From: a phage | Length of the DNA: 64,000 nucleotides | Assembly: GCA_009015555.1 (NCBI GenBank) | Contig: GCA_009015555.1_3613.1 | Strand: one strand, 5' to 3' | Part shown: positions 1 through 26,948 of the stretch, one piece after another | How positions within the stretch are numbered: position 1 is the stretch's first letter | How the letters are laid out: each line of letters opens with the position of its first letter | The notes under the pieces: model-generated | The model's input: the letters and a program-made list of their open reading frames with translations, nothing else | Database searches by the model: none | What the model was told of the DNA's origin: nothing | Made by a program: the position numbers and the translations under genes

Positions 1-888
1 TTACGGACGCCGCCCTGAGAGGTCCACCCAAGAGACTCTTGGTACATGCGGACAATCGGCACGGTGCCTGCGTGTTTAACCTCACCACCACGAATGGCAG
101 AATCCTGACCACGAATCATGCCGAAGTTCAGGCCGATCCCGGCTCGTTGAGCCGCATATTTACCCTGCGCCGTGTTGGCGTTAAAGATCTGGTCGATATT
201 ATCACCAGACTCAATCAGTACGCAAGAGCTAAACTGACGGGTCGGGGTACGAACACCCGCCATGATCGGGGTCGGTAAAGACACCTTCATCAGCGATACG
301 TTCTCGTACAGGTCAACAATACGTTCCAGACGGGTCTTTTTGTCTTCCTGTGACAACAGGCCCATTGCAATCAGCATCAGCGCCATCTGAGGGGATTCAT
401 AAATCTCCCCGGTGACGCGGTGCTTGACCAGGTACTTGTCTTCGTACTGACGCATTGCTGCGTAAGTGTAATCGAAGTCGCGGTCGTGAACGATCTTGTC
501 ATTCAGGAAAGCAATCTCATCACGGGTGTAATCGTCCAGCAGGTGGCGGTCGTACTTGCCGTTGCCCACGTTCAGATAAATCTGATGGAACAGATCGAAC
601 GGCTGGAAATCACCATATGCCTCTTTGCGGATCTTGAACAGCAGCAGTCGTGCAGCAGCGTACTGGTAATCCGGATTCTGAACACTAATCAGGTCGGATG
701 CCGCCTTAATCAGGGTTTCGTGGATGGCCTTTGTTGTTACTCCATCGAACATTTGAATCTGGGCTTTCATAAGGATCTCTGATGCACACACATCGAGACC
801 TTCACATGCCCACTCTACCACACGGTTAGCCTTCTCGGCATCGAACTTCTCTGTCGCGCCGGAATTTTTTACAACATTAATGCTGGTC
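1..888 (-). CDS. nrdA: Ribonucleotide reductase class Ia large subunit NrdA, N-terminal ~295 aa; gene runs off the window start
   Basis: Minus-strand translation LTSINVVKNSGATEKFDAEKANRVVEW...VSLPTPIMAGVRTPTRQFSSCVLIE... is collinear with E. coli NrdA N-terminus/ATP-cone from memory; TTG start at 886-888 preceded by AAGGAG; absent from ORF track because truncated. Confidence 0.88.
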
Positions 889-908
889 AAGCGGATCTCC
901 TTATTGAA

Positions 909-1139
909 TTACTTAGCTTCAGGCTTTTTGACTTCGTACTGCTCAACATCTTCCTCGGAAGCCGCACCGAGGCGGATTGTTTTACCGGAGTACGGGTCGT
1001 GGTACGTATCGTCGTAACCCATCGACTCATCACACAGGTCGTTGAACTGCAACCAGCCAATGTACTCGGCTTTGCTTTGGAAGCCACGTTTGAACCACTT
1101 AGTCTGCTCGTCCGGAACAGCATTGTTTTTCTTTGCCAT
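909..1139 (-). CDS. hypothetical protein (76 aa)
   Basis: ORF directly upstream of nrdA on same strand; no recognisable motif. Confidence 0.4.
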   Translation of the reverse strand: MAKKNNAVPDEQTKWFKRGFQSKAEYIGWLQFNDLCDESMGYDDTYHDPYSGKTIRLGAASEEDVEQYEVKKPEAK

Positions 1140-1141
1140 GA

Positions 1142-1636
1142 TTACGCTCCTTTCACCAGGTTGAAGATATCATCCATGTCGTCGAACTCTGGCAGGTCCA
1201 TGACAACAACGTCGCTACGATCCTCGCGTTTGGTGTACTTGCGGGTGTTGACCTTTTCCACAGATGGGATGTCGAACGCCAGGGAGTTCACCAGTGCAGC
1301 ACCCACGGCGCTGTTTACATCGAGGACATCTACTTTATCATAAATCCCCACGAACGGGAAGTCACGTTCATCACGCAGACGACCTGAGAAAATGGTTGTC
1401 GTGCGGAACATGTAAGGCTTATCAGCACATCGGACATTTACGCCGTCCATGCGGTCAATCTTGCATGGGACGTACAGACCAGTCTCTTCATTCAGGACAG
1501 AGACCTCAAATCCGATCAGGTGCAACACTTGGCGAAGAGTTTCCTTTTTCTTCATGTCCTTTCCAAGAAACTTTGCACACTCGACAATGAAATCCAGAGT
1601 CACAGAGCCATATTTAATATTTTTACCGAAAGCCAT
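1142..1636 (-). CDS. hypothetical protein (~165 aa; start 1636 or 1657)
   Basis: Non-overlapping ORF in gene-dense minus-strand block; no motif recognised. Confidence 0.45.
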   Translation of the reverse strand: MAFGKNIKYGSVTLDFIVECAKFLGKDMKKKETLRQVLHLIGFEVSVLNEETGLYVPCKIDRMDGVNVRCADKPYMFRTTTIFSGRLRDERDFPFVGIYDKVDVLDVNSAVGAALVNSLAFDIPSVEKVNTRKYTKREDRSDVVVMDLPEFDDMDDIFNLVKGA

Positions 1637-1717
1637 TCTACATCTCCTCGTACACAAATTCCGGGGCCAATGCCCCGGTCATAACAGAATAGGGTAAGGT
1701 TACTTCTTTGTCAAACT

Positions 1718-2764
1718 TTATTTAGCAAAATTGCTCAGGTTGTACCCACCAACTGCAACATGGCCCGGGATTAGCTGGCGATGCTGGATAAATCCCTTGA
1801 AATTGCCCGACCAGAAGTTTCCTTCGCGATCGACGTGCGTGATCCCTTTCTCCCAAGAGGATGGGCACCATGCCGCATTCAGCAACTGGCTCTCTGGGTA
1901 CTCACAATCATCAACCGTCTCTTCAATTTCACGACCCTGGTGTTCGAATGGAGAGGCATGTACCTTCTTCCCGGCAACCAGACGGGTGTAGATGTCCAGA
2001 GCCTTGTCCTTGGTGCTGTCCAGACGGCGATAGCTCACCTGACCACAACAAGAGGCAGAGATGCGGAGCGCCTCTTCTTCTGTCAGCATTACCGGGCGGT
2101 CATTTTCATCCAGAACGCAATAGCCTTCGAAGATGTGTGCGTCACCCTCCGGCCCGAAACCGTACACGTGGTCAACATACGGGGTGTGCCATACGCCCGC
2201 CGGGAGCCACTCCGGCTCGGAGTTATCCATCGCCTCCTTCATGAGGTTAGCCAGAACCTCGATCGTTGGGTCTGCATCAGCATCGACACGAAGCCACAGG
2301 AAGTTTTCCATTTCCGTTGTGGTCATGACCGTCTTCATCATCTGGAACGGTTCGATCAGACGGTTAGCGATCTGCTTGTGGAATTTGGCCTCTTCAAAAG
2401 CCAGTGCCACTTCGCAGGCGCGATCAGCCGCCTCGGCCCATGCGTCGCGCCCAGTCATTCCCTGCTCGTACTGCGGCAGGTAAACCAACGCATCATGCTC
2501 AACACCCTTGTCCTGCATACCCGGCTGGTTGGAGCCGAAGCGGACTGGCATTGCCATGTTTTCACGAATCAGCTTCACCATCGTCTTGATCGGTACAGCG
2601 CGAGATGACATCGCGTTACGGCTGAACAGTCGGTGAGTCATGAACTCACTGTGGATGATGCGAGGGTAAGTCAATTCAAAAGTCGTGATACGACCACTGC
2701 GCTGCCCCACAGAATCGGCGATGATCTGAACTTCGATATTGCCACGACTAAATACCTGACCCAT
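1718..2764 (-). CDS. thyX: Flavin-dependent thymidylate synthase ThyX
   Basis: ThyX signature RHR-x7-S present as FMTHRLFSRNAMSSRA; AAGGAG RBS before ATG at 2764. Confidence 0.85.
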   Translation of the reverse strand: MGQVFSRGNIEVQIIADSVGQRSGRITTFELTYPRIIHSEFMTHRLFSRNAMSSRAVPIKTMVKLIRENMAMPVRFGSNQPGMQDKGVEHDALVYLPQYEQGMTGRDAWAEAADRACEVALAFEEAKFHKQIANRLIEPFQMMKTVMTTTEMENFLWLRVDADADPTIEVLANLMKEAMDNSEPEWLPAGVWHTPYVDHVYGFGPEGDAHIFEGYCVLDENDRPVMLTEEEALRISASCCGQVSYRRLDSTKDKALDIYTRLVAGKKVHASPFEHQGREIEETVDDCEYPESQLLNAAWCPSSWEKGITHVDREGNFWSGNFKGFIQHRQLIPGHVAVGGYNLSNFAK

Positions 2765-2778
2765 AAAATCTCCTTTTA

Positions 2779-2982
2779 TTACTTCAACTTACGAATTTTG
2801 TAAGGAACAACAACATCATGCCTGACGGCAAGATACAAGTCAAGCATCTCCTTGCACATATCCTGCGTCACCCTGAAAGAAGTGAGCAGGTCTCCCTGCT
2901 CCGTTCTTACCTCAATATGCTCCCCGTATCGGACAACATATCGACCTTTTCCGCAACGCATTACAGGTTTTCCAGCAACCAA
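2779..2982 (-). CDS. hypothetical protein (67 aa)
   Basis: Small ORF between thyX and nucleotidase gene. Confidence 0.3.
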   Translation of the reverse strand: MVAGKPVMRCGKGRYVVRYGEHIEVRTEQGDLLTSFRVTQDMCKEMLDLYLAVRHDVVVPYKIRKLK

Positions 2983-3572
2983 TCAGCGATTTCTTTCCAG
3001 TCCGCTGAAGTTAAGTCGTAATTGATGCGTGGCTCAACATCCTGACTGAAAGGCGTGTCGAACTTGATCTTAATCACGTCGTCCGGGAATTGATTCAGGA
3101 ACTGGTTCCGATCGTCAATGATTACCCCTCCAGCGACGCCCGCTTTAACCTTTGTGGCATAAAAACCGCTGCCGTCTGTCCCGTTGTCGAGATCAAGGAA
3201 CGGACAATGACGCTTCAGGAATCGTACCTTGCTGCTGAAGTGCCCCTTCTTGCAGTAAGATACGAAACGAATCGGGTGCCCGGCCTCGTGCAAACGACGA
3301 ATTGCATCCACTGCCCCGGCAATCGGCGTCATCTTGTCGTACAGATGAGGATCTTCCCAAAACTCATACGGCTCAATCGCCTCTTTGCAACGAGTCGGGA
3401 AGTATTTGGAGAGGTTGTAATTGAACAACCCCTTTTCCTCATAATCCTTGTCCATCAAATCAACGTCCGCAGGGATTTGATAGACACTTTCCATCCAGTA
3501 AAGCCAAGGCCACCCTGAATCAACGAACGTCAGATCTACATCTACCAGGATCGGGGTCTTAGTGAATGACAT
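2961..3572 (-). CDS. HAD-family 5'(3')-deoxyribonucleotidase-like protein
   Basis: N-terminal VDVDLTF (DxDxT HAD motif I) when started at MSFTKTPILVDVDL; AAGGGAG RBS before ATG at 3572. Confidence 0.65.
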   Translation of the reverse strand: MSFTKTPILVDVDLTFVDSGWPWLYWMESVYQIPADVDLMDKDYEEKGLFNYNLSKYFPTRCKEAIEPYEFWEDPHLYDKMTPIAGAVDAIRRLHEAGHPIRFVSYCKKGHFSSKVRFLKRHCPFLDLDNGTDGSGFYATKVKAGVAGGVIIDDRNQFLNQFPDDVIKIKFDTPFSQDVEPRINYDLTSADWKEIADWLLENL

Positions 3573-4218
3573 ACAGGTCGCTCCCTTTACAGTCTTGCAC
3601 AAAATCACAAATCTTACGGACCGTGCCGTTCAGATCGCCTTCTTCGTTCAGGATGTCAGTTTCATACATCCGAAGATGTTCAGGAAACTCTTTCGCATAG
3701 ATATATCGGCGAGAATCCCCATCGAAATTGTACTCCGTGCCATCTTTTTTCAGACGGTGGATTCGGACAAGGAAATAGTTGTCCGGGCCAACCACATTCA
3801 CAACCGGGATCGACTCCTCTAAGAAGCCCCCGTCGCTGACCACAACTACCAGTTGCACGTCTGCCGGGGTTTCATCCTTCAGCTTTTGCAACTTGGCGGC
3901 AAATGCCTTACCAAACACATCATTCCCAAATGTGGGCTTCATGATGTTCTCGGAGCAGTGGATCATCCAGTCACGAGGGCTGACGTTTACGCCGTTGATC
4001 TGGAGATACGGGCACGGCTTCTCTTTGTACTCACGCTCATACAGAGCGAACCACAGCTTACGGCTCAGGCCGGATGCCCGGATAGCGATATCGAACAGAA
4101 GTTCCTTGAACTCCATGTGGACGACTTCAAACCCCGGGGTGTTGATATAGCTGTGGAGACCTTCGCACAGTGCATCTTTTCCCGCGCCCGCCGGGGCATT
4201 CAAATTAATCAGAATCAT
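3559..4218 (-). CDS. Deoxynucleoside monophosphate kinase (P-loop)
   Basis: MILINLNAPAGAGKD Walker A at N-terminus; start overlaps upstream stop as TAATG (translational coupling). Confidence 0.72.
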   Translation of the reverse strand: MILINLNAPAGAGKDALCEGLHSYINTPGFEVVHMEFKELLFDIAIRASGLSRKLWFALYEREYKEKPCPYLQINGVNVSPRDWMIHCSENIMKPTFGNDVFGKAFAAKLQKLKDETPADVQLVVVVSDGGFLEESIPVVNVVGPDNYFLVRIHRLKKDGTEYNFDGDSRRYIYAKEFPEHLRMYETDILNEEGDLNGTVRKICDFVQDCKGSDLYVIH

Positions 4219-4529
4219 TAGTGCTCCCACTCCTCTCTGTACCATTTTGGCATAGGTGCCAAATAACCATTCACACGCTCAAGTTCGTTAAGGATCTTCT
4301 CTGCCGAACTTAATTTTGTAAAGCGGCGGAGGGTCTTCCACCCCTTGTAATGAACCGGGAGTTCAAAACACTCATAAGAGCCTTCGCAATACCTGAACTC
4401 TTGAACCCGATACTTAAAGAAATAAGCTCTCGGGTCGTACTGGATTCGATATTTGAACTGATCGCCATTATCCCGATGCGCCTGCTTTTTGTCAAGGGCC
4501 TTTTTCATTTCTTGGGAGATGAACATCAT
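4218..4529 (-). CDS. hypothetical protein (103 aa)
   Basis: ORF with coupled stop/start to downstream kinase gene. Confidence 0.5.
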   Translation of the reverse strand: MMFISQEMKKALDKKQAHRDNGDQFKYRIQYDPRAYFFKYRVQEFRYCEGSYECFELPVHYKGWKTLRRFTKLSSAEKILNELERVNGYLAPMPKWYREEWEH

Positions 4530-4546
4530 TATCCTCCTGTTTCAAA

Positions 4547-4572
4547 AAGAAAAACCGCCCCGAAGGGCGGCT
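4547..4572 (-). terminator. Rho-independent terminator hairpin (CCGCCC-TTCG-GGGCGG family) with T-run on minus strand
   Basis: Minus-strand reading ccaagccgcccttcggggcggtttttcttttt directly after stop of 4577..5659 gene. Confidence 0.6.
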
Positions 4573-4576
4573 TGGG

Positions 4577-5659
4577 TTACAGAATGTTCGCCAGCGTTTT
4601 CTTCATCGCTGCCTTCTCACGAACGTTCTGGCGGTCACGGGCACAAGACCCGCATTCCTGACAACGGTACACCTTAAATTTGGACAGGAAGGTGTGGGCA
4701 GATTTGCCTTTTTCTTCCACCAAGTCGTCGGAACCGCAGCGTACACATCGCATCACAGACTGATCCGGGTGGAACAGGGCAATGTTAGGGTGCTTACGCA
4801 TAAACGGACGAACGGTCAGGTACAGTTCTTCCAATGTCGGGATATCCCCGATGTTGTACTCTTCCATTTCGTCGAATGCCGTAGGATCACCTTCCACACA
4901 GCGACGCCACAGACCGAATCCTTCGTGAGACAACTTACGGCTGTCCAGTTCGAAGTAGTTACACGCCGCTTCCAGTGCATTGGAAGGCAGAGAGAACGAC
5001 TCCTTCAGTGCCGCCAGTGTGTCGATCGTGATATATGGGCTTGGCGGTTGCATACCGTAATATGCGAAACGCTGGTTGGCCCAACCACGGTCGAAACGGG
5101 CGTTGTGTGCAATGAAGATATCACACTCGTCAAGGACTTGCCAGAGATCCTGAATCAGTTTTTTATCCGACTGATGATCCCGTTTGAACTCTTCCGGGTA
5201 GTCGGTCAGTTTACGACTGAAGATGGACGGGTTGTGCAGCCACTTCCCGGCGAACGTCAGCATGTACGGCTCTTGAATAACCTGCTTCGGCGCGATGAAT
5301 TGCTTGAAGCGACCAAACGAATAGGCGATGCTCGGAGAGGTCTCGACATCACCAAGGAACACTTTGGCACCCGGGTTATTTTCCTTCACCTTTTCGATGA
5401 AGGTTTTCTGGATCTCTGCCAGCGTTTTACCACCATTGACTTCCTGCTGCATAAAATCAGCGTACTCATCTGGTGTTGGGATACTGTCAATCAATTGTTG
5501 GACAGTTTCCAGATTACGTGCTTCCAGTTCACGCTTCAGCATGTTGCGTACAGTTGACTCTTGAGATTCCTTGCCCAGTTGACGGGCTACCTCGCGCTGG
5601 GACAACCCACCCTTCATCAGAGCCATAACCTGTTCAACAGTAAAAGTCACATTAGCCAA
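4577..5659 (-). CDS. DEDDy-type 3'-5' exonuclease with N-terminal HTH-like region and C-terminal Cys4 ribbon
   Basis: Exo I DVET, Exo II HNARFD, Exo III YNIGD motifs in order; C-terminal CVRCG...CQECG. Confidence 0.68.
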   Translation of the reverse strand: MANVTFTVEQVMALMKGGLSQREVARQLGKESQESTVRNMLKRELEARNLETVQQLIDSIPTPDEYADFMQQEVNGGKTLAEIQKTFIEKVKENNPGAKVFLGDVETSPSIAYSFGRFKQFIAPKQVIQEPYMLTFAGKWLHNPSIFSRKLTDYPEEFKRDHQSDKKLIQDLWQVLDECDIFIAHNARFDRGWANQRFAYYGMQPPSPYITIDTLAALKESFSLPSNALEAACNYFELDSRKLSHEGFGLWRRCVEGDPTAFDEMEEYNIGDIPTLEELYLTVRPFMRKHPNIALFHPDQSVMRCVRCGSDDLVEEKGKSAHTFLSKFKVYRCQECGSCARDRQNVREKAAMKKTLANIL

Positions 5660-5673
5660 AATTAATCTCCCGA

Positions 5674-5937
5674 TTACTTACAAAATTCGATAATGTCTAC
5701 CACGGCGAAGTCACGAACATCGTCTTTATCGACATCGTGCGCCTTGATGAACCACTGAGCGCCTTTATGGTACTCACTTTCCCCGTACCAGAACATTGGG
5801 GCACCCTTGATGGTTCGATAACCGCATTCACCTCTCCAGTTACGGTAGAAGAACCGAATGTTCGGGGCATCCAACCCCGCATACAGACTTCGATCGATCT
5901 TACTCATAAAGATAGTCTTCCTCCAATTTCCGGACAA
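5674..5937 (-). CDS. hypothetical protein (87 aa)
   Basis: ORF only. Confidence 0.4.
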   Translation of the reverse strand: MSGNWRKTIFMSKIDRSLYAGLDAPNIRFFYRNWRGECGYRTIKGAPMFWYGESEYHKGAQWFIKAHDVDKDDVRDFAVVDIIEFCK

Positions 5938-6469
5938 ACTCAGTGACGTAGATGGTGATCATCACGCCCTTGTCCAGGTTCTCGTCAATAACGATACCGA
6001 AGTTCAGGTAGGCGTTACGGGCGATAGTTTCCTTTGTCCACCTCTTGAGTGACTTCTTCAAGTCGGCGACAATCTCTCCGTGGAACTTATGGTGGAGATA
6101 GTCCCTTTCAAGATAGTCTGCCAGTCTACGCAGAGTTTCACTCATTGTCAACCCTGTTTTCCCTTCCATGTGCTTAGACCACAACTTCTGGACTCCGCCC
6201 TCGAAAAGATTAAGAGTTGACCCGATGACCCCACGGCATTTTCCGTCGTAATGGTCATGGTCCAAACATGGGTCCGCCATCGGCTCCCGCAGGATAGCAC
6301 AAAGACCACCCTGCTCCAAAAGGAGTTGATCCCGGTAGGCCGCAATACTCTTCGACCCAGAGACCCACTTATCCTTGCTCAAAGGTACACGAATCGGCGT
6401 TGTAGCCTTCACTTTAGCAGTGAAGCTGGGCTTCCTCGATCGCCTTCTTCTCCCTGTCCGTATTGCCAC
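5900..6469 (-). CDS. Recombination endonuclease VII-like (HNH-type) protein; start uncertain
   Basis: CAIL...DHDH...CRGV...N motif arrangement resembles T4 endonuclease VII zinc/catalytic core from memory. Confidence 0.62.
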   Translation of the reverse strand: MAIRTGRRRRSRKPSFTAKVKATTPIRVPLSKDKWVSGSKSIAAYRDQLLLEQGGLCAILREPMADPCLDHDHYDGKCRGVIGSTLNLFEGGVQKLWSKHMEGKTGLTMSETLRRLADYLERDYLHHKFHGEIVADLKKSLKRWTKETIARNAYLNFGIVIDENLDKGVMITIYVTEFVRKLEEDYLYE

Positions 6470-9069: not shown

Positions 9070-9576
9070 TTAAAACGCATCACCAAAGTCCTCTTCTTCC
9101 TTGACGGGGCGCTTGAACTTAAAGTCCGGCCCCATGTACTCACTCAGGTAGTCGATATTAAGCGACCACTCCTGCTGGCTGCGCTGCCGCCATGTGGCAA
9201 ACTCACTTTTCAGATAAGCAATGGCCTGATCACGAGTGATCCCATTAACCTTCATGAATTGCTTGATCGCCCTTTCGAGTTTCCCGTTCTTCTCGGCGAG
9301 GCCCGGATGGTGGAACTCATGGCACGGCGGACACAGGCTCATGAGGCCGACCAGTTTAACCTCTCCATTTTCGAATGTCCAGCTTTCATGACACTCAACC
9401 GGATGTTTTCTTCCGTTTCCACCCTGCCCACCACAGATCTGGCAGGTGTAGTTGTGCTCGGCATAGCACTTCCGGCGCACCTTATCCCACCCGGTCTGGG
9501 TGAGGTAAGAACGGAGGTTGTTGTCCCACGCCGTTTGTGGGATCAGGCAGATTTTATGCTTAATCTTTGAAGTCAT
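9070..9576 (-). CDS. Cys/His-rich putative zinc-binding protein
   Basis: CQICGG...HPVECHE...CPPCHEFHH cluster; start taken at MTSKIKHK. Confidence 0.42.
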   Translation of the reverse strand: MTSKIKHKICLIPQTAWDNNLRSYLTQTGWDKVRRKCYAEHNYTCQICGGQGGNGRKHPVECHESWTFENGEVKLVGLMSLCPPCHEFHHPGLAEKNGKLERAIKQFMKVNGITRDQAIAYLKSEFATWRQRSQQEWSLNIDYLSEYMGPDFKFKRPVKEEEDFGDAF

Positions 9577-10111
9577 TACGCACCCTCTCATACCCGCCGC
9601 AGCGGTCAATCAGGGCGTCCGTCGCCCGGTCCCACGCCTTGCCCAAGAGGTTCATCCCCAACCAGTTGGCCTCGTCGTCAATCATCGGGTGGTCTTGGCT
9701 CAGGCCGACACCCCAGATACGATCCCGGTCAGAAGCCTCAACAAAACTCCGGCCCGCAAGTCGGTGCTGGATCGCCTCGCAGCGGAGGCCGAGGTCAAAC
9801 ACCAGACGGCAGTAACAGACATTCTCGACGATCTGCTCTCGGGACTTCTCCCACAGTTCGTTGTTGAACCCCTTTACCTTACGACCAAGCATCTTGGCTT
9901 CCTGCGGGTGGAATACCTCTGTGATCTGCCGGGCGATATTGTGATCGGCAAACAGCATGGCCTTTTCGTACATCATCATGTGCTCCCCGGTGTAGAACTT
10001 AACACCTTCCTGCTCATGTCGCGGCAGAGCGAAAGCCCTGTCGTTTCGGTAATGATTACTGAACATGTCCTTCCACGAATAGAAGAACACGTGCTTGTCG
10101 GTCACCCTCAT
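9560..10111 (-). CDS. NADAR (YbiA-like, DUF1768) domain protein
   Basis: GEHMMMYEKAMLF...IWGVGL pattern characteristic of NADAR/YbiA family from memory. Confidence 0.65.
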   Translation of the reverse strand: MRVTDKHVFFYSWKDMFSNHYRNDRAFALPRHEQEGVKFYTGEHMMMYEKAMLFADHNIARQITEVFHPQEAKMLGRKVKGFNNELWEKSREQIVENVCYCRLVFDLGLRCEAIQHRLAGRSFVEASDRDRIWGVGLSQDHPMIDDEANWLGMNLLGKAWDRATDALIDRCGGYERVRNDFKD

Positions 10112-13542: not shown

Positions 13543-13905
13543 TTACTTGTCTGTCTCCAGGATCTTACGCTCAGTAGCCAGATCACGGTTCTCCGCCAGG
13601 TCGTTTTCGAACTTACTCGGGTAACGAGCCTTCAGCTTGCGAATCACACGGTCCTGCTCTGCATCGAAGTCGGTGTTCAGTGCATCCATCGCCAGTGCCA
13701 GATACCACAGCAGGTCACCCATTTCCTCTTTCAGGTTGGTGGTGTCCAGAGGCTTGCCGTAGAACAGGGACTTCTTCAGGGCATCCTGGAACTCTGCCGC
13801 CTCGGTCACCAGACCCATTGAAGCGTGAATCAGGCGCGGGCCAACCGCGTCCAGATAAAAGTTGTGGGACTCGGTACGGATAGCATCTTTAATAAACTGC
13901 GACAT
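13543..13905 (-). CDS. MazG-like nucleotide pyrophosphohydrolase
   Basis: EMGDLLWYLALAMDAL motif typical of MazG/all-alpha NTP-PPase family; start taken at MSQFIKD. Confidence 0.6.
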   Translation of the reverse strand: MSQFIKDAIRTESHNFYLDAVGPRLIHASMGLVTEAAEFQDALKKSLFYGKPLDTTNLKEEMGDLLWYLALAMDALNTDFDAEQDRVIRKLKARYPSKFENDLAENRDLATERKILETDK

Positions 13906-13959
13906 CAACTTCTCCTTTTCTGTTTCAGTGGGGCCATTATACATGACCCCGTTACACTG

Positions 13960-14400
13960 TCAACGACTTTTGTAAATCTTTTCTGCTTCTTCCCGGCGAC
14001 GTTCGTCACGGGCCTTCCTTTCGATGGCACACGCTTCCCGGTAGGCTTTCCGCCGGGCACCGCAGATACCTTCGACCAGACGCAGAACGCGATCCTGCTC
14101 CCAACGGTTCATCCAGTCGAGATCCCCGGAGACAACAGGGGAGCCGTGGAAGTTGTCACGGTAAAGGTACGTCTTCACCTTCCGTTCGTGGTCGAGGATC
14201 ACATAGTCCACAAAGTGGCTACAGCGGTCTCGGTCCGCTTGCGATGGGTTGTCGTACACTTCCAGCTTTTTGGCAGCGATCAATTCGAGAATCCGATTGA
14301 CCGGGGGCCGGGTCATGCGCCTTGGTGTCACGTACTTATCCCATGCCCATACGAGGACCAGAAGAATAAACAAACTTGTGCAGACCCAGAATCCCGTCAT
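13960..14400 (-). CDS. membrane-anchored hypothetical protein
   Basis: N-terminal TM helix WVCTSLFILLVLVWAW. Confidence 0.45.
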   Translation of the reverse strand: MTGFWVCTSLFILLVLVWAWDKYVTPRRMTRPPVNRILELIAAKKLEVYDNPSQADRDRCSHFVDYVILDHERKVKTYLYRDNFHGSPVVSGDLDWMNRWEQDRVLRLVEGICGARRKAYREACAIERKARDERRREEAEKIYKSR

Positions 14401-15764
14401 TCCAGATCCTCCGCAATAGCCCGCAGCAGATCCAGCAGGGAGTCAGATGCCTCGATCACCTCTTCCAGGCTGTTAGCCTTGGTCTTGTCCATACGGATCT
14501 CGACGAACTTGTAGTTCAGACGAGGCAGGAACAGAGACTGAAGCTCTTTGGTTTCCGACTTCGTGATGTCGTTGGCCTTGATCGTGATGATCTGCCCGAT
14601 GAAGAAGTCCGCTGGCTTCTTACGAAGCGCGTCCGTCAAGCCGGAGCCGACGCCAACTTCCAGCAAGCCGTCACGAGTACGACAGATCAGTGCGCCGACG
14701 AGACTAGGATCTTTCTTGTGCGGCGTTGTAGCCACGACTTCCAGATCAACATCGAACTCGTTCTTCAACTTGACGCCTTTCTTCGTCTTGTTGTCGCCCC
14801 ACGGCATCTTCGCCTCTTTGAGGACGGTGCCCTCTTTCTTCTGGAGGCGCATTTCGATGAAGTGGTCGATCGCTTCCTTCAGGCTGTTGATCTTACGGCC
14901 CGTAACCATACGGAAGTTGTAACGGCGATCGACTTCCTGCACCAGCAGATCCGCCTCGATACGACGATCAGCGTAGTCGGTCTTCGACTTACGTGCGATG
15001 TACTCTTCCATCGTCACGATGTCCCAGATCACCAGGCGCACCAGATCACGATCGATGTCTGCCGGGTCTTGGTTCAGGTAGCCGTTGCCCTCAGCACGTT
15101 CCATCACACCATGCAGGCCATCATCGTCGATAACCAGACCTTCGCCATGTGCCACAAAGGCCCCACGGTTTTCTGCCGCCTGCATCAGGCGCTGCTCGAT
15201 CTCTTCCGGAGCACGGAAGTTCAGTTCCTTCCCGGAGCGGGAGCGGTAGATCACCTGCTCAGGCCACACCATGATGTCCGCATACAGGCCATCCATTTTC
15301 TCGTCGGAGAAAGCGCCCTTGTAGTTGAACTTACGCAGCAGATCCTCTTTGAACAGGGTGTAGCTCTGGTACGGAGGCTCCGTGATCAGGTCTTTCCACA
15401 CCTTATTGGTCAGAGTGGTCTGGATGCCGCACTCCAGATCTCGGTTGATGATCTTCAGAAGTGTGCCCGGCTCCTCGCAGGTCTGTACCAGTTGAGTCAT
15501 GTACGACTTCGCATCATCACCCGTGTAAACTCGCCCTGCGATGTTCTTCACCAACAGATCCACGCTTTCAGACAGCGGGGTAAGACCAGTCGTGAAGAAT
15601 GGAACCCGCAGTCCTCGGACGAAAAAGTTCAGTTCTTTGGAATATGCAACAGCGAAGGCTTGTTTCAGGCCATCGTTATCGGCATTCGCCCGCAGGATCG
15701 CTTCCTTCTCCTTGAGGGATCGGGTTGCAGACAACTCTGCGAGAATACTCGTTACGTTTGACAT
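14397..15764 (-). CDS. ATP-dependent DNA ligase-like nucleotidyltransferase
   Basis: KMDG (KxDG motif I) about 157 aa from N-terminus, similar spacing to T4 DNA ligase from memory; RNA ligase not excluded. Confidence 0.55.
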   Translation of the reverse strand: MSNVTSILAELSATRSLKEKEAILRANADNDGLKQAFAVAYSKELNFFVRGLRVPFFTTGLTPLSESVDLLVKNIAGRVYTGDDAKSYMTQLVQTCEEPGTLLKIINRDLECGIQTTLTNKVWKDLITEPPYQSYTLFKEDLLRKFNYKGAFSDEKMDGLYADIMVWPEQVIYRSRSGKELNFRAPEEIEQRLMQAAENRGAFVAHGEGLVIDDDGLHGVMERAEGNGYLNQDPADIDRDLVRLVIWDIVTMEEYIARKSKTDYADRRIEADLLVQEVDRRYNFRMVTGRKINSLKEAIDHFIEMRLQKKEGTVLKEAKMPWGDNKTKKGVKLKNEFDVDLEVVATTPHKKDPSLVGALICRTRDGLLEVGVGSGLTDALRKKPADFFIGQIITIKANDITKSETKELQSLFLPRLNYKFVEIRMDKTKANSLEEVIEASDSLLDLLRAIAEDLE

Positions 15765-19269: not shown

Positions 19270-20160
19270 ATGATTCGTGCATATTTAGGCGGAAGTCAGT
19301 TGGACATCGAGTTCAGCACATTTGCCGGGGGCGAGAGAAACGTCCTCATCAAGGGTTTCCAATGGCCCAGTCCGTTCAATGCGGATCTGAAAGAGAAGAT
19401 GCCAGAAGGTAAAGACCTTGTTGTCTACGCCCATGTTGACAGTTCAGATGCCATCATGGACCTGCTGCTGTTTACCGACGCATTCAACCGCATGGGTCGA
19501 GGCACAGGCAACCAGGTGAAGAAGGTCTGTTATGTGCCATACATCCCGTATGCCCGTCAAGACCGAGTGATGGTTCCTGGAGAACCGCTGTCGTCGGCAG
19601 TGTTTGGAACACTTATCAACCTGTGTGGATTTGACCGTATCATTGTTGATGACCCGCACTCAGATGTGTCTCCGTCACACATCAAGAACGTTGCCATTTT
19701 CGAACAATATGAACTGGCCTTGGATATTCTTGGCCCGGGCTTCTTCGACGATGCCGTTATCGTAGCTCCGGACGCCGGGGCAATCAAGAAGGTCACGAAG
19801 TTGGCTCAGAAGGTCAACCACCGTGAAATCGGGGTTGGGACCAAGCATCGTGACCTTATGACCAATAACATCACTGACACGACTTATGCCGGGCCGGATG
19901 TTAATGGTAAGCGTGTCATCATGGTTGATGACATTTGCGACGGAGGTCGTACATTTATCGAGCTTGGTAAGGTTCTCCGTGCCAATGGTGCGAAAGAGGT
20001 TGTTCTGTACACCACGCACGGGATTTATTCCTACGGCGCGGATGTGTTTAAGGACGTTATTGATGAGGTTTACTCCGCCTATCCGTGGATGAAGAACCTG
20101 GAAGGCCGAAACGAAAATAATATTTTCAAATCTGTTGACAAGATGGTTGAGTTCAAGTAA
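19270..20160 (+). CDS. PRPP synthetase (Prs)-family phosphoribosyl-pyrophosphokinase; candidate ADP-ribose pyrophosphate synthetase (Adps) of a NARP1-type pathway
   Basis: Type I PRTase/Prs motif VIMVDDICDGGRTF and Prs-like N-terminal half (PYARQDR); strong RBS GAGGAGAGAGAT-ATG. Confidence 0.75.
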   Translation: MIRAYLGGSQLDIEFSTFAGGERNVLIKGFQWPSPFNADLKEKMPEGKDLVVYAHVDSSDAIMDLLLFTDAFNRMGRGTGNQVKKVCYVPYIPYARQDRVMVPGEPLSSAVFGTLINLCGFDRIIVDDPHSDVSPSHIKNVAIFEQYELALDILGPGFFDDAVIVAPDAGAIKKVTKLAQKVNHREIGVGTKHRDLMTNNITDTTYAGPDVNGKRVIMVDDICDGGRTFIELGKVLRANGAKEVVLYTTHGIYSYGADVFKDVIDEVYSAYPWMKNLEGRNENNIFKSVDKMVEFK

Positions 20161-20211: not shown

Positions 20212-22002
20212 ATGTTACATAACGACCTGCCTATCCTGTTTGCTGACTGGTACAAACCGAGCCATATTTCCATGTACAGCAAACAGTCTGAGATCGTACA
20301 AGACAACATGACCCCACGCTCAAGCAAACACTTTCAGCACTTTTCTGACAGTGACCAGCGCGTCATGTCTGCTGGCCTGCAAGGCTTTATTAAGTGGTTC
20401 CTGATTGAACACTTCAACCGTGAGTTCTTCGGTCGTCCGAAGGAAGAAGTTATCGGGGAGTTCAAAGAGATCTGTGACCTGGCGATCGGCCCAGACATGG
20501 TTGAAACGTGGGGCTTCGAAAAGCTGCATGACCTGGGCTATCTGCCTGTTGAAATCCGCGCCCTGCCGGAAGGTACTCTTTCTCCGGTACAAGTGCCTCT
20601 GTTCACAATTCAGAACACGCACCCGGACTTCTACTGGCTTCCTAACTACCTGGAGTCAGTGATCTCCTCTGAAAACTGGAAAACCGTAACTACGGCAACC
20701 ATTTTCTGGCAGTATCGTAAGCTGGCTGAACTGTGGGCGCAGAAAACCTGCGACAACAACCTGCACGTCCCGTTCCAGATTCATTGCTTCGCTTATCGCG
20801 GCCAGGCTGGCACTCACGATGCGGCCCAGTCTGAACTGGGACAACTGATGAACTCTCAGGGCACCGACACCATCCCGGCGATCCTGTATGCAAACCGTTA
20901 TTACGGTATGAAAGGCAAGTTCGTATCCGGCTCCATCCCGGCATCCGAGCACAGCGTTGCAACAACGAACATCGGGTTCATCATCGGACGCCTCCGTTCT
21001 GAGCATCCGGAAATGTCGCTGGATGACCTGCGTTTCCACGCAGAAGTCGAGTTCCTGCGCCGATACATCACTGAAATCTTCCCGAAAGGTTTCGTGTCTT
21101 ATGTCGGCGACAGTTATGACTGGTTCCGCCTGATCACTCAGGGTGTTCGTATCCTGAAAGACGAAATCATGGCCCGTGATGGTCGTGTGGTATTCCGCCC
21201 GGATTCCGGCGTACCGGAAGACATCATCTGCGGCACACTGGACTGGCGTAAGATTGAAGACCTCGACACGGCAGGTACTCTGGAACGCGCTGCCAATTGG
21301 GCACTGGAAAGTGCCGAAGATGAAGTTCGTGAGAACACCCCGCACGGTGAATGCGGTGATGAATCCGTTGAACGTTACTTCCTGTTCGATGGCGATCTGT
21401 ACCTGATGAAGGGTGAGATTGACTGGAACCGTCACGACAAAACGTATTACTACATCGACGGTCGCCGTGTTCTGTCTTACGAAAAGGCAGAACTCACTGA
21501 TGAGCAGAAAGGTTCTGTTGAACTGCTGTACGATGTGTTCGGTGGCGACCTGAACTCCAAAGGCTATCGTACTCTGGACACCCACGTCGGCCTGATTTAC
21601 GGTGACTCCATCACCGTTGCTCGCGCCAAAGAGATCTTCGAGCGCCTGGAAGCAAAAGGCTTTGCATCGAACAACGTTGTGTTCGGTGTCGGTTCCTTCA
21701 CCACCCAGTTCAACACTCGTGATTCTCTGGGTCAGGCAGTCAAGGCGACAGGCGCGGTTATTGACGGTCAGCAGATCATGGTCGTCAAAGAGCCTAAGAC
21801 CGACCTCGGCAAGAAGTCTGCTCAGGGCTTCCTGAAGGTTGTTCGTGGTGAAGACGGTGAACTGAAGCTGGTTGATAACCTCCAACTGGAGCAAGTCAAC
21901 GATACCGACAATGAACTGCGTGTGGTTTTCCGTGACGGCGTTCTGCTGGTTGACGAAACGCTGACTGAAATCCGTGAGCGTGTCACAGCAAACCTGAAAT
22001 AA
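20212..22002 (+). CDS. Nicotinamide phosphoribosyltransferase (NAMPT/NadV) family protein; candidate nicotinamide ADPR transferase (Namat)
   Basis: 596-aa NAMPT-family translation immediately downstream of the Prs-like gene; RBS GAGGAG; no NMN adenylyltransferase seen in window. Confidence 0.8.
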   Translation: MLHNDLPILFADWYKPSHISMYSKQSEIVQDNMTPRSSKHFQHFSDSDQRVMSAGLQGFIKWFLIEHFNREFFGRPKEEVIGEFKEICDLAIGPDMVETWGFEKLHDLGYLPVEIRALPEGTLSPVQVPLFTIQNTHPDFYWLPNYLESVISSENWKTVTTATIFWQYRKLAELWAQKTCDNNLHVPFQIHCFAYRGQAGTHDAAQSELGQLMNSQGTDTIPAILYANRYYGMKGKFVSGSIPASEHSVATTNIGFIIGRLRSEHPEMSLDDLRFHAEVEFLRRYITEIFPKGFVSYVGDSYDWFRLITQGVRILKDEIMARDGRVVFRPDSGVPEDIICGTLDWRKIEDLDTAGTLERAANWALESAEDEVRENTPHGECGDESVERYFLFDGDLYLMKGEIDWNRHDKTYYYIDGRRVLSYEKAELTDEQKGSVELLYDVFGGDLNSKGYRTLDTHVGLIYGDSITVARAKEIFERLEAKGFASNNVVFGVGSFTTQFNTRDSLGQAVKATGAVIDGQQIMVVKEPKTDLGKKSAQGFLKVVRGEDGELKLVDNLQLEQVNDTDNELRVVFRDGVLLVDETLTEIRERVTANLK

Positions 22003-23477: not shown

Positions 23478-23553
23478 GCTGGATTAGCTCAGTAGGTAGA
23501 GCGCCTCACTTGTAATGAGGATGTCGCGGGTTCGATTCCTGCATCCAGCACCA
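23478..23553 (+). tRNA. tRNA-Thr (anticodon TGT)
   Basis: Cloverleaf read by eye: acceptor gctggat/atccagc, anticodon loop cttgtaa, T-loop ttcgatt, CCA encoded. Confidence 0.8.
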
Positions 23554-23559
23554 GATCAT

Positions 23560-23636
23560 GCAACGTTGCCGGAGTCTGGTAACGGCTCTCGCTGCAAACG
23601 AGATGAGCACTGGTTCGAATCCAGTACGTTGCTCCA
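23560..23636 (+). tRNA. tRNA-Cys (anticodon GCA)
   Basis: Acceptor gcaacgt/acgttgc, anticodon stem tctcg/cgaga, loop ctgcaaa, T-loop ttcgaat, CCA. Confidence 0.75.
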
Positions 23637-23637
23637 A

Positions 23638-23714
23638 GCGCCTTTGGTCCAATTGGTAGAGGCACTACATTCAAAATGTAGGGGTTCCCAGTTCGAATCT
23701 GGGAAGGCGCACCA
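23638..23714 (+). tRNA. tRNA with CAA anticodon (Leu by anticodon) but short variable arm
   Basis: Acceptor gcgcctt/aaggcgc, anticodon stem ctaca/tgtag, loop ttcaaaa, T-arm cccag-ttcgaat-ctggg, CCA; only 5-nt variable region. Confidence 0.6.
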
Positions 23715-23730
23715 AAATTTATGTAACCTA

Positions 23731-23759
23731 TTGACATAGTGTAATTATACTGCTAATAT
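23731..23759 (+). promoter_or_regulatory. Sigma70-type promoter for the small gene embedded in the tRNA array
   Basis: TTGACA 23731-23736, 17-nt spacer, TAATAT 23754-23759, then RBS and ATG at 23786. Confidence 0.6.
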
Positions 23760-23785
23760 GGATACACTAATTCAATGGGGGCATT

Positions 23786-24160
23786 ATGAGCAAGGCTGCG
23801 ATTGTAACTCGTAAGCGTGGTCGCCCAAGCAAAGAAGAGAGCACAGCAATCGCCCTTGAAAAGGCAATGCTTGATCTCCGAGGCGAATTGGCCCGTCTGA
23901 CGCCGAAGGCCATTCATACTCTCGAAAACCTGCTCACAACAGGCACAGAGAAAGTGAAGGAAACCACGGCGAAGTATATCCTTGAGCAGGCGAAAGAGGT
24001 TAACAACCTCTATACTGAAGAGGATAACGAAGACGACGCAGCAGGCGGCACAACATCTGCCTCTTCTGAAACTCACGCTGGTTCTTCTGACGAGATGAAA
24101 AATGCCATCCCGTTGACAACCCAGATTCGTGAGTATAAAGCAGTAGGCGAAGATGATTAA
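23786..24160 (+). CDS. small protein with AT-hook-like RKRGRPSK motif (124 aa)
   Basis: Own promoter, RBS and downstream hairpin; basic N-terminus, acidic Ser/Thr-rich C-terminus. Confidence 0.5.
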   Translation: MSKAAIVTRKRGRPSKEESTAIALEKAMLDLRGELARLTPKAIHTLENLLTTGTEKVKETTAKYILEQAKEVNNLYTEEDNEDDAAGGTTSASSETHAGSSDEMKNAIPLTTQIREYKAVGEDD

Positions 24161-24162
24161 CT

Positions 24163-24190
24163 GGAAGGCTCCCGAAGGAGCCTTTATTAG
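24163..24190 (+). terminator. Terminator-like hairpin
   Basis: aaggctcccgaaggagcctt hairpin followed by tattag (weak T tract). Confidence 0.4.
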
Positions 24191-24325
24191 AAGTTCTCTT
24201 TTGACGGGCACTTGTTAACGACCCGCAGAATGACGACGGTGTACAACGGCGTTTGATGGCGAGGAAGGTCTATAGGGATCAGCGCAGATCCTTGGATGTC
24301 AGGTGAGCCGTACAAAAGAGAATTT

Positions 24326-24413
24326 GGGGAGTTATTTCCGTAGAGGTAGCGGTGCAGACTGTAAATCTGTTGTCATTGCGACTCGGGTGGTTCGACTCCA
24401 TCACTCCCCACCA
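24326..24413 (+). tRNA. tRNA-Tyr (anticodon GTA), long variable arm
   Basis: Acceptor ggggagt/actcccc, anticodon loop ctgtaaa, T-loop ttcgact, CCA. Confidence 0.75.
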
Positions 24414-24419
24414 AATTAT

Positions 24420-24514
24420 AGTAGGATGGCTGAGTGGCTTAAAGCAGCATCTTGGAAAGGTGTCGGATCAGGTAACCCCTGGTCCCGGGAGTTCAAATCT
24501 CCCTCCTACTGCCA
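24420..24514 (+). tRNA. tRNA-Ser (anticodon GGA), long variable arm
   Basis: Acceptor agtagga/tcctact, anticodon loop cttggaa, T-loop ttcaaat, CCA. Confidence 0.7.
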
Positions 24515-24518
24515 GACC

Positions 24519-24595
24519 GGATCGTTAGCTCAATTGGTTAGAGCAAGGGACTTTTAATCCCGAGGTTCGGGGTTCGAGTCCCTGACGGTCCACCA
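24519..24595 (+). tRNA. tRNA-Lys (anticodon TTT)
   Basis: Acceptor ggatcgt/acggtcc, anticodon loop cttttaa, T-loop ttcgagt, CCA. Confidence 0.75.
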
Positions 24596-24760
24596 GAAAG
24601 GAAGAGGGTCCAAGCTGGTAATGCGAGAGGCGAGTCCTCAGACCAAAGCCCAGATGGAGGCCACCCTAAAGTCGTCCAACCGAAGGTCCCTGATTGAGTA
24701 ATACTTCCCCGCTTGTCGGGTACAGTTCTCAGTCACACCGGAAGGGGCGCACCCTATAAT

Positions 24761-24836
24761 TGACGGTGAGCATATAAGGACATGCGGGGGCCTGTTAAGT
24801 CCAGGATAGCTGGTTCGAATCCAGTACCGTCAGCCA
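24761..24836 (+). tRNA. tRNA-Asn (anticodon GTT)
   Basis: Acceptor tgacggt/accgtca, D-stem gcat/atgc, anticodon loop ctgttaa, T-loop ttcgaat, CCA. Confidence 0.7.
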
Positions 24837-24945
24837 ATTTGGTTCCGACAAGGTGACGGCGCACCCCGGAGCGACGCTGAAAGATGCAGGCCGACGAACA
24901 CATACGTGTACTTAATCAATAGTCATTGCGATGGCTATTCGTTAA

Positions 24946-25023
24946 GTCCTGGTAGACAAACTGGATAAAGTCACCACCCTTTCAAGGTGGGGTTTGAGGG
25001 TTCGATCCCCTCTCAGGACGCCA
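24946..25023 (+). tRNA. tRNA-Glu (anticodon TTC)
   Basis: Acceptor gtcctgg/tcaggac, anticodon stem ccacc/ggtgg, loop ctttcaa, T-loop ttcgatc, CCA. Confidence 0.75.
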
Positions 25024-25117
25024 ATCTTTTAGGTCGGTAGATTAATGAGCAAAGGCCGCTCGCTGGATTCCAACCCCAGTTCAAGGCGTTCGATTCGTCA
25101 CCTTCCTGCCAAATTCA

Positions 25118-25193
25118 GGTCCTATGGTATTAGCGGTAAACATACTCGCCTGTCACGCGAGAGTCACGGGTTCGAATCCCGTTAGGACCGCCA
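25118..25193 (+). tRNA. tRNA-Asp (anticodon GTC)
   Basis: Acceptor ggtccta/taggacc, anticodon stem ctcgc/gcgag, loop ctgtcac, T-loop ttcgaat, CCA. Confidence 0.75.
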
Positions 25194-25200
25194 CTTCAAA

Positions 25201-25275
25201 TGGGGATTAGCTCAGGGGTAGAGCGCACAACTGATAATTGTGAGGTCGGTGGTTCGAAACCACCATCCCCAACCA
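25201..25275 (+). tRNA. tRNA-Ile (anticodon GAT)
   Basis: Acceptor tggggat/atcccca, D-arm gctc-aggggta-gagc, anticodon loop ctgataa, T-loop ttcgaaa, CCA. Confidence 0.75.
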
Positions 25276-25345
25276 AACAGCCCCTCCCGGGATTGGACCG
25301 GGTTAACGGCAATCGCACACTGAGGCGTCTTCCGGGGGAACAATA

Positions 25346-25422
<77 letters not shown>

Positions 25423-25428
25423 AATTAT

Positions 25429-25503
25429 TGCGAGGTAGTTCAGCGGTAGAACAGGGGTTTCATACGCCTCATGTCGGCAGTTCGATTCTGCCCTTCGCAA
25501 CCA
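25429..25503 (+). tRNA. tRNA-Met (anticodon CAT; initiator, elongator or Ile-lysidine type not distinguished)
   Basis: Acceptor tgcgagg/cttcgca, anticodon loop ttcatac, T-loop ttcgatt, CCA. Confidence 0.7.
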
Positions 25504-25509
25504 AATCAT

Positions 25510-25587
25510 GCTCCAGTAGCCCAATTGGTAGAGGCACTTGATTTAGGATCATGTCAGCGATGAGTTCGAATCTCTCCTGGAGTACCA
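25510..25587 (+). tRNA. tRNA with TAG anticodon (Leu by anticodon), short variable arm, weak T-stem
   Basis: Acceptor gctccag/ctggagt, anticodon stem cttga/tcatg, loop tttagga, T-loop ttcgaat with only ~3 bp T-stem, CCA. Confidence 0.5.
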
Positions 25588-25593
25588 CATAAA

Positions 25594-25667
25594 GCGGGCA
25601 TGGTATAGTGGTTGTGCCTTAGCCTTCCAAGCTAATGAGTCCGGTTCGATCCCGGATGTCCGCTCCA
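25594..25667 (+). tRNA. tRNA-Gly (anticodon TCC)
   Basis: Acceptor gcgggca/tgtccgc, anticodon stem ttagc/gctaa, loop cttccaa, T-loop ttcgatc, CCA. Confidence 0.75.
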
Positions 25668-25740
25668 ATTCACGGTGAGTCACTGCCGTTAAGTGTGAAG
25701 TTAAAAATGCCCGTGGTGATCGGGTTATCTCACCCAGTGT

Positions 25741-25816
25741 AGGGGATTAGTTTAATTGGTAAAACATCGGGTTTTGATCCCGACATCGCGAGGTTCGAAT
25801 CCTCCATCCCCCGCCA
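25741..25816 (+). tRNA. tRNA-Gln (anticodon TTG)
   Basis: Acceptor aggggat/atccccc (A1-C72 mismatch), anticodon stem tcggg/cccga, loop ttttgat, T-loop ttcgaat, CCA. Confidence 0.7.
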
Positions 25817-25898
25817 CATTAATGCTCATTAGCTCTTGTCAGTGGAACTCGAACCCTTAGAGCAGGCGACACAGACGTGTGTTTTAGTGAGCATCAAT

Positions 25899-25974
25899 GT
25901 GGCCTTAATTCAGCAGGTAGAATCCCCGGTTGTGAACCGGGCAGTCGTGGGTTCAAGTCCCACAGGTCACCCCA
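25899..25974 (+). tRNA. tRNA-His (anticodon GTG)
   Basis: Acceptor gtggcct/aggtcac, anticodon stem cccgg/ccggg, loop ttgtgaa, T-loop ttcaagt, CCA. Confidence 0.75.
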
Positions 25975-25978
25975 ATCT

Positions 25979-26071: not shown

Positions 26072-26092
26072 CCCCTGATCATAAGGCAAACT

Positions 26093-26785: not shown

Positions 26786-26856
26786 TAGGGATGGTCCCTA
26801 CGAGGATCGTCTTTTGCTCAGTGGTACTCAGCATTTACTTAGTATTCAAACAATAT

Positions 26857-26943: not shown

Positions 26944-26948
26944 AGCAT

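Follow-up and report, generated by a model that had tools for sequence, protein, structure and literature searches.

What does the cluster of nucleotide-metabolism genes at the left end of this phage sequence do, and does the atypical ThyX-like protein encoded in it make deoxythymidylate (dTMP)? The DNA is a stretch of 64,000 nucleotides (nt) from contig GCA_009015555.1_3613.1 of GenBank assembly GCA_009015555.1, referred to here as the window. A first-pass annotation of the window had named NrdA, ThyX, a HAD 5'-nucleotidase, a P-loop deoxynucleoside monophosphate (dNMP) kinase, and, further along at 13543, a MazG-like gene. Each of these was found where that annotation had placed it, on the minus strand, using Pfam, PHROG, and Foldseek. 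By family, fold, and synteny, the set is made up of a class Ia ribonucleotide reductase (RNR), a ThyX-superfamily enzyme, a T4-gp1-type dNMP kinase, an NT5C nucleotidase, and a MazG-like protein. The favored answer, given a probability of roughly 0.8, is that the cluster serves as the usual DNA-precursor module of a lytic phage of the genus Certrevirus (rV5-like, subfamily Vequintavirinae), in which ThyX would fold to the same active site as its canonical relatives and make dTMP. The genes of the set are as follows.

1..908, minus strand: N-terminus (302 codons) of NrdA, the large subunit of class Ia RNR, assigned from its translation and the Pfam domains ATP-cone, Ribonuc_red_lgN, and Ribonuc_red_lgC
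1718..2764, minus strand: rearranged (circular-permutation-like) flavin-dependent thymidylate synthase of the ThyX class, 348 amino acids (aa), start ATG at 2764 preceded by AAGGAG
2961..3572, minus strand: HAD-superfamily 5'(3')-deoxyribonucleotidase of the NT5C family, 203 aa, matched by Pfam NT5C, start ATG at 3572 after AAGGGAG
3559..4218, minus strand: P-loop dNMP kinase of the T4 gp1 type, 219 aa, with the P-loop NAPAGAGKD, a member of phrog_139
13543..13944, minus strand: MazG-like nucleoside triphosphate (NTP) pyrophosphohydrolase, matched by Pfam MazG (PF03819) at 33.4 bits against a cutoff of 22, with an expectation value (E) of 5.4e-8

The ThyX-like protein is recognized by family profiles and by its predicted fold. 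It scores 34.5 bits against Pfam Thy1 (PF02511; cutoff 24.8) and matches phrog_85, "thymidylate synthase", at E 5e-104. The AlphaFold2 (AF2) model is a confident, compact fold with a predicted local distance difference test (pLDDT) of 93.7 and a predicted template modeling score (pTM) of 0.92, and its top Foldseek matches are all ThyX. The earlier call of a ThyX-type synthase is upheld by the Thy1 and phrog_85 matches, but the protein is not a standard ThyX. The Thy1 match is limited to profile positions 60-190, at residues 28-184, and is not collinear with the curated models. A phmmer search of PDB sequences with the single protein recovers no solved ThyX; the family profile alone does so.

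The poor scores against standard ThyX references result from a rearranged order of segments. The profile of the window family aligns with Thermotoga maritima ThyX in three pieces, which are out of order.

Profile 226-272, T. maritima chain residues 31-75: helices ending in H-x-T/S-P-F-E-H, with His53
Profile 27-55, T. maritima chain residues 74-102: the RHR...S.R motif
Profile 146-186, T. maritima chain residues 172-212: Asn169 and Arg174

Canonical phage ThyX proteins (P23-45 and VpaJT_1) give the same order: canonical residues 51-87 fall on profile 230-268, and residues 92-236 fall on profile 29-185. Both pieces are supported by hhalign (E 1.8e-4 and 1e-5). The linear order of the canonical enzyme is strand 1, the helices with His53, the RHR...S.R motif, and the Arg147/Arg174 core. 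Here, the order is a strand, the T-H-R...S.R motif, the Arg147/Arg174 core, a beta insert, the His53 helices, and a short tail with an invariant Arg. The VHASPFEH-type segment, which stands ahead of the RHR motif in canonical ThyX, is part of the relocated helices. The segments lie in the window as listed.

2600..2638, minus strand: ThyX motif region T43-H-R-LFSRNAM-S53-S-R55, equivalent to T. maritima R78-H79-R80...S88-G-R90
2207..2377, minus strand: core segment with K130, R135 (=R147), N154 (=N169), and L158/R159 (=L173/R174), matched to canonical ThyX residues 160-200 and unvarying across 65 homologues
1940..2080, minus strand: relocated helical segment, residues 229-275 (...ISASCCGQVSYR...VHASPFEH), with S244 (=S30), H269 (=H53), S271 (=T55), and E274 (=E58), placed by hmmsearch and hhalign against canonical ThyX
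1772..1804, minus strand: C-terminal tail motif NFKGFIQHRQL, with R329 invariant (65/65)

Invariance was counted over 65 diverse ThyX-like homologues, reaching down to 35% identity. Sixteen columns are invariant, and the ThyX catalytic set is included among them. The residues kept in all 65 (T. maritima equivalents in parentheses) include H44 (H79), R55 (R90), R135 (R147), N154 (N169), L158/R159 (L173/R174), S244 (S30), and H269 (H53). Nearly invariant are S53 (S88; 64/65), S271 (T55; 63/65), and E274 (E58; 61/65), and R45 is kept in 51. The RHR-x7-S motif reported in the first-pass annotation was a misreading: the letters are T-H-R-L-F-S-R-N-A-M-S, i.e., THR-x7-S, extended to THR-x7-S-x-R. 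The core of the ThyX motif is thus kept, and the strict RHR-x7-S form is not. The Arg165 equivalent is Thr. Positions that are invariant only in this class are K130, E138, H193, P195, and R329, the last of which lies in the C-terminal "IQ(H/Y)R" tail.

One argument for function comes from the sister Certreviruses CB7 and phiTE. In these phages, the ThyX slot holds a canonical ThyX of 226 aa that matches the full-length Thy1 profile at 152.8 bits. The DNA homology between the window and CB7 ends at window position 1720 and restarts at 2759, at the stop codon and start codon, respectively, of the ThyX open reading frame (ORF). Window 1721-2758 is replaced by CB7 4711-6073 (coordinates of the CB7 piece), while the flanking DNA keeps 92% and 80% identity. 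The CB7 stretch holds the 226-aa ThyX, a 97-aa ORF, and about 385 nt of non-coding DNA. A tblastn search of CB7 with the window ThyX gives no similarity. An exchange this precise between two types of ThyX is best explained by functional equivalence in dTMP synthesis, and the comparison argues that the window protein and the canonical CB7 enzyme would do the same job.

The 226-aa and 97-aa ORFs of CB7 were also considered as a split copy of the window thyX; this was rejected, given the lack of tblastn similarity and the canonical nature of the 226-aa product. The 97-aa ORF has a sub-threshold match to an AP2 domain (Pfam AP2, 21.5 bits; cutoff 33.3) and is possibly the remnant of a homing endonuclease. 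The canonical CB7 enzyme itself has K-H-Q instead of R-H-R.

Inteins are a second indication of function. Relatives of 556-683 aa carry inteins exactly at T-H-R^ and at H^-x-S-P-F-E-H (^ marks the insertion point). Sites of this kind are occupied in indispensable enzymes, which supports a working thymidylate synthase. The relatives P0135, P0143, and P0145 have the pattern THR^C...HN^CFSRN, and P0155 and P0218 have H^C...GN^SSPFEH, each site falling within a catalytic motif. One intein type has an HNH endonuclease, and the other is LAGLIDADG-like in look. Tandem duplication had been considered as the origin of the permutation because some relatives reach 630-680 aa. This was rejected, since the extra length is made up of inteins.

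Over its first 6 kb, the window matches the DNA of Cronobacter phage CR3, a Certrevirus, with 97.6% identity. Identity over this stretch is 95-97% with PBES02, CR8, and Pectobacterium phage P7_Pc, which are likewise Certreviruses of the subfamily Vequintavirinae. The order exonuclease, kinase, NT5C, small ORF, ThyX, two small ORFs, and NrdA recurs in Salmonella phage PVP-SE1, with proteins that are 42-59% identical, so the clustering is not due to chance. The gene order is also kept in CB7, where the kinase and NT5C are 81-87% identical to those of the window and the small proteins next to the ThyX slot are 95-98% identical. The cluster is therefore an ordinary, already-sequenced DNA-precursor module, present in GenBank and in a published phage genus. 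The proposal that the phage directs the supply and control of its deoxynucleoside triphosphate (dNTP) pool finds support in homology and fold and in the conserved position of these genes beside those for RNR.

NrdA had been described as truncated. Only its first 302 codons are in the window, but the cut is made solely by the left window edge. The CR3 counterpart, gp216, is full length and is followed by NrdB and glutaredoxin, both of which lie just outside the window. The ATP-cone, the all-alpha domain, and the start of the barrel are all found by Pfam in the available codons (E 4e-14 to 8e-16).

The kinase matches phrog_139 (dNMP kinase) at E 5.9e-44 and has no match in Pfam or NCBIfam. Residues G13, K14, and D15 of its P-loop are invariant among homologues. 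The AF2 model has a pLDDT of 94.7, and its best PDB match by Foldseek is the T4 gp1 dNMP kinase, 1DEK (E 1.7e-5; template modeling (TM) score 0.61), which ranks only marginally ahead of dephospho-CoA and adenylate kinases. Going by the phrog_139 annotation and the gene context, this enzyme would phosphorylate dNMPs.

The nucleotidase scores 35.0 bits against Pfam NT5C (PF06941; threshold 24.8; E 1.7e-8). A profile built from 28 homologues matches solved 5'(3')-deoxyribonucleotidases almost end to end, namely 3BWV (E 5.5e-8), human mdN 1MH9 (8.5e-7), and cdN 4L57 (9e-5). All four HAD motifs are invariant in the 28 homologues and align to the motifs of 3BWV and 1MH9: D11-x-D13 (I), S105 (II), K115/K143 (III), and D153-D154 (IV). 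Family membership points to a dNMP phosphatase activity. PDB sequence searches with the kinase, and with the nucleotidase as a single sequence, returned only noise or generic P-loop matches.

The MazG-like gene is the counterpart of CR3 gp245, a "MazG-like pyrophosphatase", and has weak PDB matches to YpjD/MazG. It is on the same strand as the cluster and physically outside it, at a distance of ~9 kb and ~20 genes. The profile searches proposed for each enzyme in the first-pass annotation were run, and Pfam or PHROG families were matched for all five.

A pathway can be proposed from these families. RNR would make deoxynucleoside diphosphates (dNDPs). Deoxyuridylate (dUMP), probably from the host, would be methylated to dTMP by the phage ThyX using methylene-tetrahydrofolate and reduced flavin adenine dinucleotide (FAD)/NAD(P)H. 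The ThyX reaction yields tetrahydrofolate, so no dihydrofolate reductase (DHFR) is needed. The kinase would act on dTMP and other dNMPs, some of them released by the breakdown of host DNA, and the resulting dNDPs would go to the host nucleoside diphosphate kinase. The nucleotidase and MazG would run in the opposite direction, trimming, balancing, or cleaning the pools. Solved NT5C homologues prefer dUMP and dTMP.

Several points weigh against this reading of the module. The ThyX-like protein fails the equivalog model TIGR02170, with 30.7 bits against a cutoff of 87.9. Two residues of the dUMP site depart from the canonical enzyme: Thr (T43) stands in place of the first RHR Arg in 62/65 homologues, and the lid Tyr (Tyr91 in T. 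maritima, Tyr108 in Mycobacterium tuberculosis) is Ala56 in 65/65. In canonical ThyX, the lid Tyr covers uracil C5 and flavin N5 (PMC6514825). The relocated helices are proposed to rebuild the same active-site pocket. No assayed enzyme of the rearranged class was found in the literature searched. What the kinase, nucleotidase, and MazG act on is read from family membership only. dCMP deaminase, dUTPase, and DHFR were looked for in the CR3 annotation at 58-142 kb and none is annotated, most ORFs there being listed as "hypothetical". With no deaminase or dUTPase annotated there, the host supply of dUMP is an assumption.

The lost first Arg and lid Tyr may be replaced by residues of the added C-terminal part, with invariant K130 or R329 as candidates. 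The tail NFKGFIQHRQL may be what is left of a second RHR-like motif, from which the missing Arg would come; hhalign places it on canonical RQWFRHR at E 0.26, which is not significant. An internal repeat relating the N-terminal strand and helix to the C-terminal tail was also tried and dropped (E 0.38, not significant). A "1.5-copy" origin of the rearranged ThyX is a conjecture.

The rearranged class is composed of 4841 clusters at 50% identity. It occurs in 1035 phage records, versus 1254 found in the same collection with a canonical ThyX fragment as query, and is therefore about as common as the canonical form in the phages searched. Members include the Vequintavirinae (rV5/PVP-SE1), Vibrio phage ICP1, Pakpunavirus (PAK_P1), N4-like phages (Bp4 and EE36phi1), and phiCbK. 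In PAK_P1, the rearranged thyX is beside the RNR genes, and in ICP1, it is in the same region as nrdA. The N4-like roseophages carry a rearranged-class thyX accompanied by a dCMP deaminase. A 2009 roseophage paper gives N4 gp30 as a homologue of the EE36phi1 protein, and by transitivity N4 itself would carry the rearranged class. Published genome papers label these genes "thyX" or assign them to dTMP synthesis, and the topology passes without comment.

Neither a permuted ThyX nor a characterized phage ThyX of the rearranged class was found in the literature searched. The class may represent a natural, circular-permutation-like ThyX that this literature does not describe. Such an enzyme would have its His53 helices behind the core, would have lost the first RHR Arg and the lid Tyr, and would have gained a C-terminal tail whose R329 possibly compensates. 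Its substrate binding and assembly would possibly be unlike those of the textbook tetramer. This proposal is tentative and is given somewhat less than an even chance.

Three other explanations of the cluster were considered. The first is that it mainly counters bacterial dNTP depletion (of the dCTP deaminase or dGTPase type) by re-synthesizing or re-routing precursors. Direct evidence for this was not found. The window does contain other likely counter-defence metabolism, i.e., a Prs-like and NAPRTase-like pair and a NADAR protein, so the phage does invest in restoring depleted metabolites. Sets of RNR, thymidylate synthase, and dNMP kinase nevertheless occur in large lytic phages generally, where fast DNA synthesis explains them. 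The synteny of the cluster is ancient within the Vequintavirinae, and no sequence feature is specific to a defence system, so the escape from dNTP-depleting defences raised in the first-pass annotation finds no support in the sequence. The explanation is compatible with a standard precursor module, and as the main role of the cluster it is improbable.

The second is that the module makes a modified pyrimidine, as in SPO1- and PBS2-type phages. The atypical ThyX-like enzyme would install another group or act on another nucleotide, the kinase would phosphorylate the product, and the nucleotidase would destroy the canonical competitor. The departures from canonical ThyX at the lid Tyr (an invariant Ala) and the first RHR Arg fit this idea, and the combination of kinase and nucleotidase is reminiscent of base-replacement phages. 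The swap in CB7 and phiTE speaks against it, as a canonical ThyX replaces exactly the window ORF while the kinase and nucleotidase stay 81-87% identical. The published digestion of CB7 DNA by BglI and ClaI is normal, which bears on the kinase and nucleotidase only, since the CB7 ThyX is canonical. The residues that hold uracil and FAD are all retained. The class is spread over 1035 phage records; in ICP1, PAK_P1, and the N4-like phages among them, the gene is described as an ordinary thyX, and in the roseophages it accompanies a dCMP deaminase. No ThyA-like hydroxymethylase or DNA hypermodification gene was seen among the products scanned or in the CR3 annotation at 58-142 kb, where many ORFs are unannotated. 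The link to modified-nucleotide metabolism suggested in the first-pass annotation is thus weakened by the canonical ThyX in the same slot of CB7/phiTE and by the lack of a base-modifying enzyme among the products scanned, and a modified base is very unlikely here.

The third, that the phage depends on host ThyA and keeps its ThyX-like gene as a decayed or catalytically inactive leftover, draws on the weak scores against curated ThyX models and the phmmer search that matched no solved ThyX, and is scarcely credible against 16 invariant columns including the catalytic set in homologues down to 35% identity, 4841 clusters at 50% identity, a confident compact fold, inteins at the motifs, a strong ribosome-binding site, and an intact ORF.

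The gene calls of the first-pass annotation are right and are slightly better than those of RefSeq CR3. RefSeq places the start of thyX (CR3 gp219) 11 codons downstream, giving 337 aa; the differing stretch is window 2731-2764. The longer form of 348 aa is probably correct because alignments of homologues begin at residue 1-10 and the ATG at 2764 has the strong ribosome-binding site AAGGAG 7 nt ahead of it. The kinase and nucleotidase are listed as hypothetical in RefSeq CR3. A practical gain is better names for these two genes, i.e., dNMP kinase and 5'(3')-deoxyribonucleotidase.

Three small conserved genes are found between the enzymes of the cluster, each with no assigned function.

909..1139, minus strand: phrog_5488 protein, 76 aa, between thyX and nrdA, conserved; 97% identical in CB7 and 52% in PVP-SE1
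1142..1657, minus strand: phrog_5557 protein, about 164-171 aa, a conserved neighbor
2779..2982, minus strand: phrog_4903 protein, small (60-67 aa), conserved, between NT5C and thyX

A promoter-like site (1714-1686) and a hairpin (1678-1661) are directly upstream of the phrog_5557 gene. Both are weak. Over window 1-6000, promoter and terminator scans gave 7 sites against 4.7±2.2 in shuffles and 9 against 5.8±2.4, respectively. These counts are not above the shuffles, so no operon structure is claimed beyond the overlapping stop and start codons. The NT5C gene starts within the 3' end of the kinase gene, with 14 nt in common, and in the sequence TAATG the start codon of the kinase (ATG at 4218) overlaps with the stop codon of the ORF ahead of it. 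This upstream ORF (4218-4529, minus strand; 103 aa; phrog_15820) is an accessory gene with no counterpart in CB7 or PVP-SE1. Inside it is a near-consensus sigma70-like site, TTGACA-17-GATAAT, at 4495-4467, and a strong hairpin with a T-run is found just upstream of it at 4573-4552.

Further genes lie outside the cluster. A ribose-phosphate-pyrophosphokinase-like gene (Pribosyltran/Pribosyl_synth; CR3 gp256) is at 19270-20160 on the plus strand and adjoins a NAPRTase-family gene (CR3 gp257) at 20212-22002, also on the plus strand. The phage NAD+ reconstitution pathway NARP1 is composed of Adps and Namat (bioRxiv 10.1101/2024.02.11.579819). The Prs-like and NAPRTase-like pair resembles NARP1 and likely counters an NAD-depleting defence. 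A NADAR-domain protein is at 9560-10111 on the minus strand (Pfam E 1.4e-32).

Proteins with a NADAR domain act on ADP-ribose adducts, and alongside the NAD-salvage pair the gene hints at an ADP-ribose/NAD counter-defence theme in the phage. Eighteen tRNA genes are located at 23478-27024 (plus strand), between the NAD-salvage genes and the structural module. An ATP-dependent DNA ligase-like gene is at 14397-15764 on the minus strand (NCBIfam PRK09125; E 1e-14). The full-length antisense ORF that shadows it (14376-15761, plus strand; 461 aa) is almost certainly spurious.

The rearranged topology and altered active site of a widespread phage ThyX are the sole point of wider interest. ThyX has an unusual mechanism and is a target for antibacterials. 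If shown to make dTMP, a class without the lid Tyr and one phosphate-binding Arg would offer a natural way to learn which active-site elements are essential. Found in >1000 phage genomes and interchangeable in situ with the canonical enzyme, the class would also explain the under-scoring by curated ThyX models.

Compared with known systems, the window nucleotidase gives a near full-length profile match to the NT5C family (mdN 1MH9, cdN 4L57, and bacterial 3BWV), but the relationship is distant (E 1e-7 to 1e-4). The kinase shares the GKD-type P-loop and phrog_139 with T4 gp1 (1DEK), although the two are only 13% identical. PolB (4P5A), a UMP/dUMP C5-methylase of polyoxin biosynthesis, has the canonical segment order and belongs to secondary metabolism, unlike the window ThyX, and nothing here points to the use of UMP. 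Canonical ThyX (T. maritima TM0449, 1O26; M. tuberculosis, 2AF6) shares the H-R-x7-S-x-R core with the window protein, which also has the equivalents of Arg147, Asn169, Arg174, Ser30, His53, Thr55, and Glu58. The window ThyX differs in having its His53 helices after the core instead of before it and in its length of 348 aa versus about 220. At the level of the whole module, RNR, a thymidylate synthase, and a dNMP kinase are encoded together here, as in the T4 nrdAB-td-gene 1 and rV5/PVP-SE1 gp130-138 modules. Unlike modules with a ThyA-type Td, this one uses ThyX, so it needs no DHFR, and it adds an NT5C nucleotidase.

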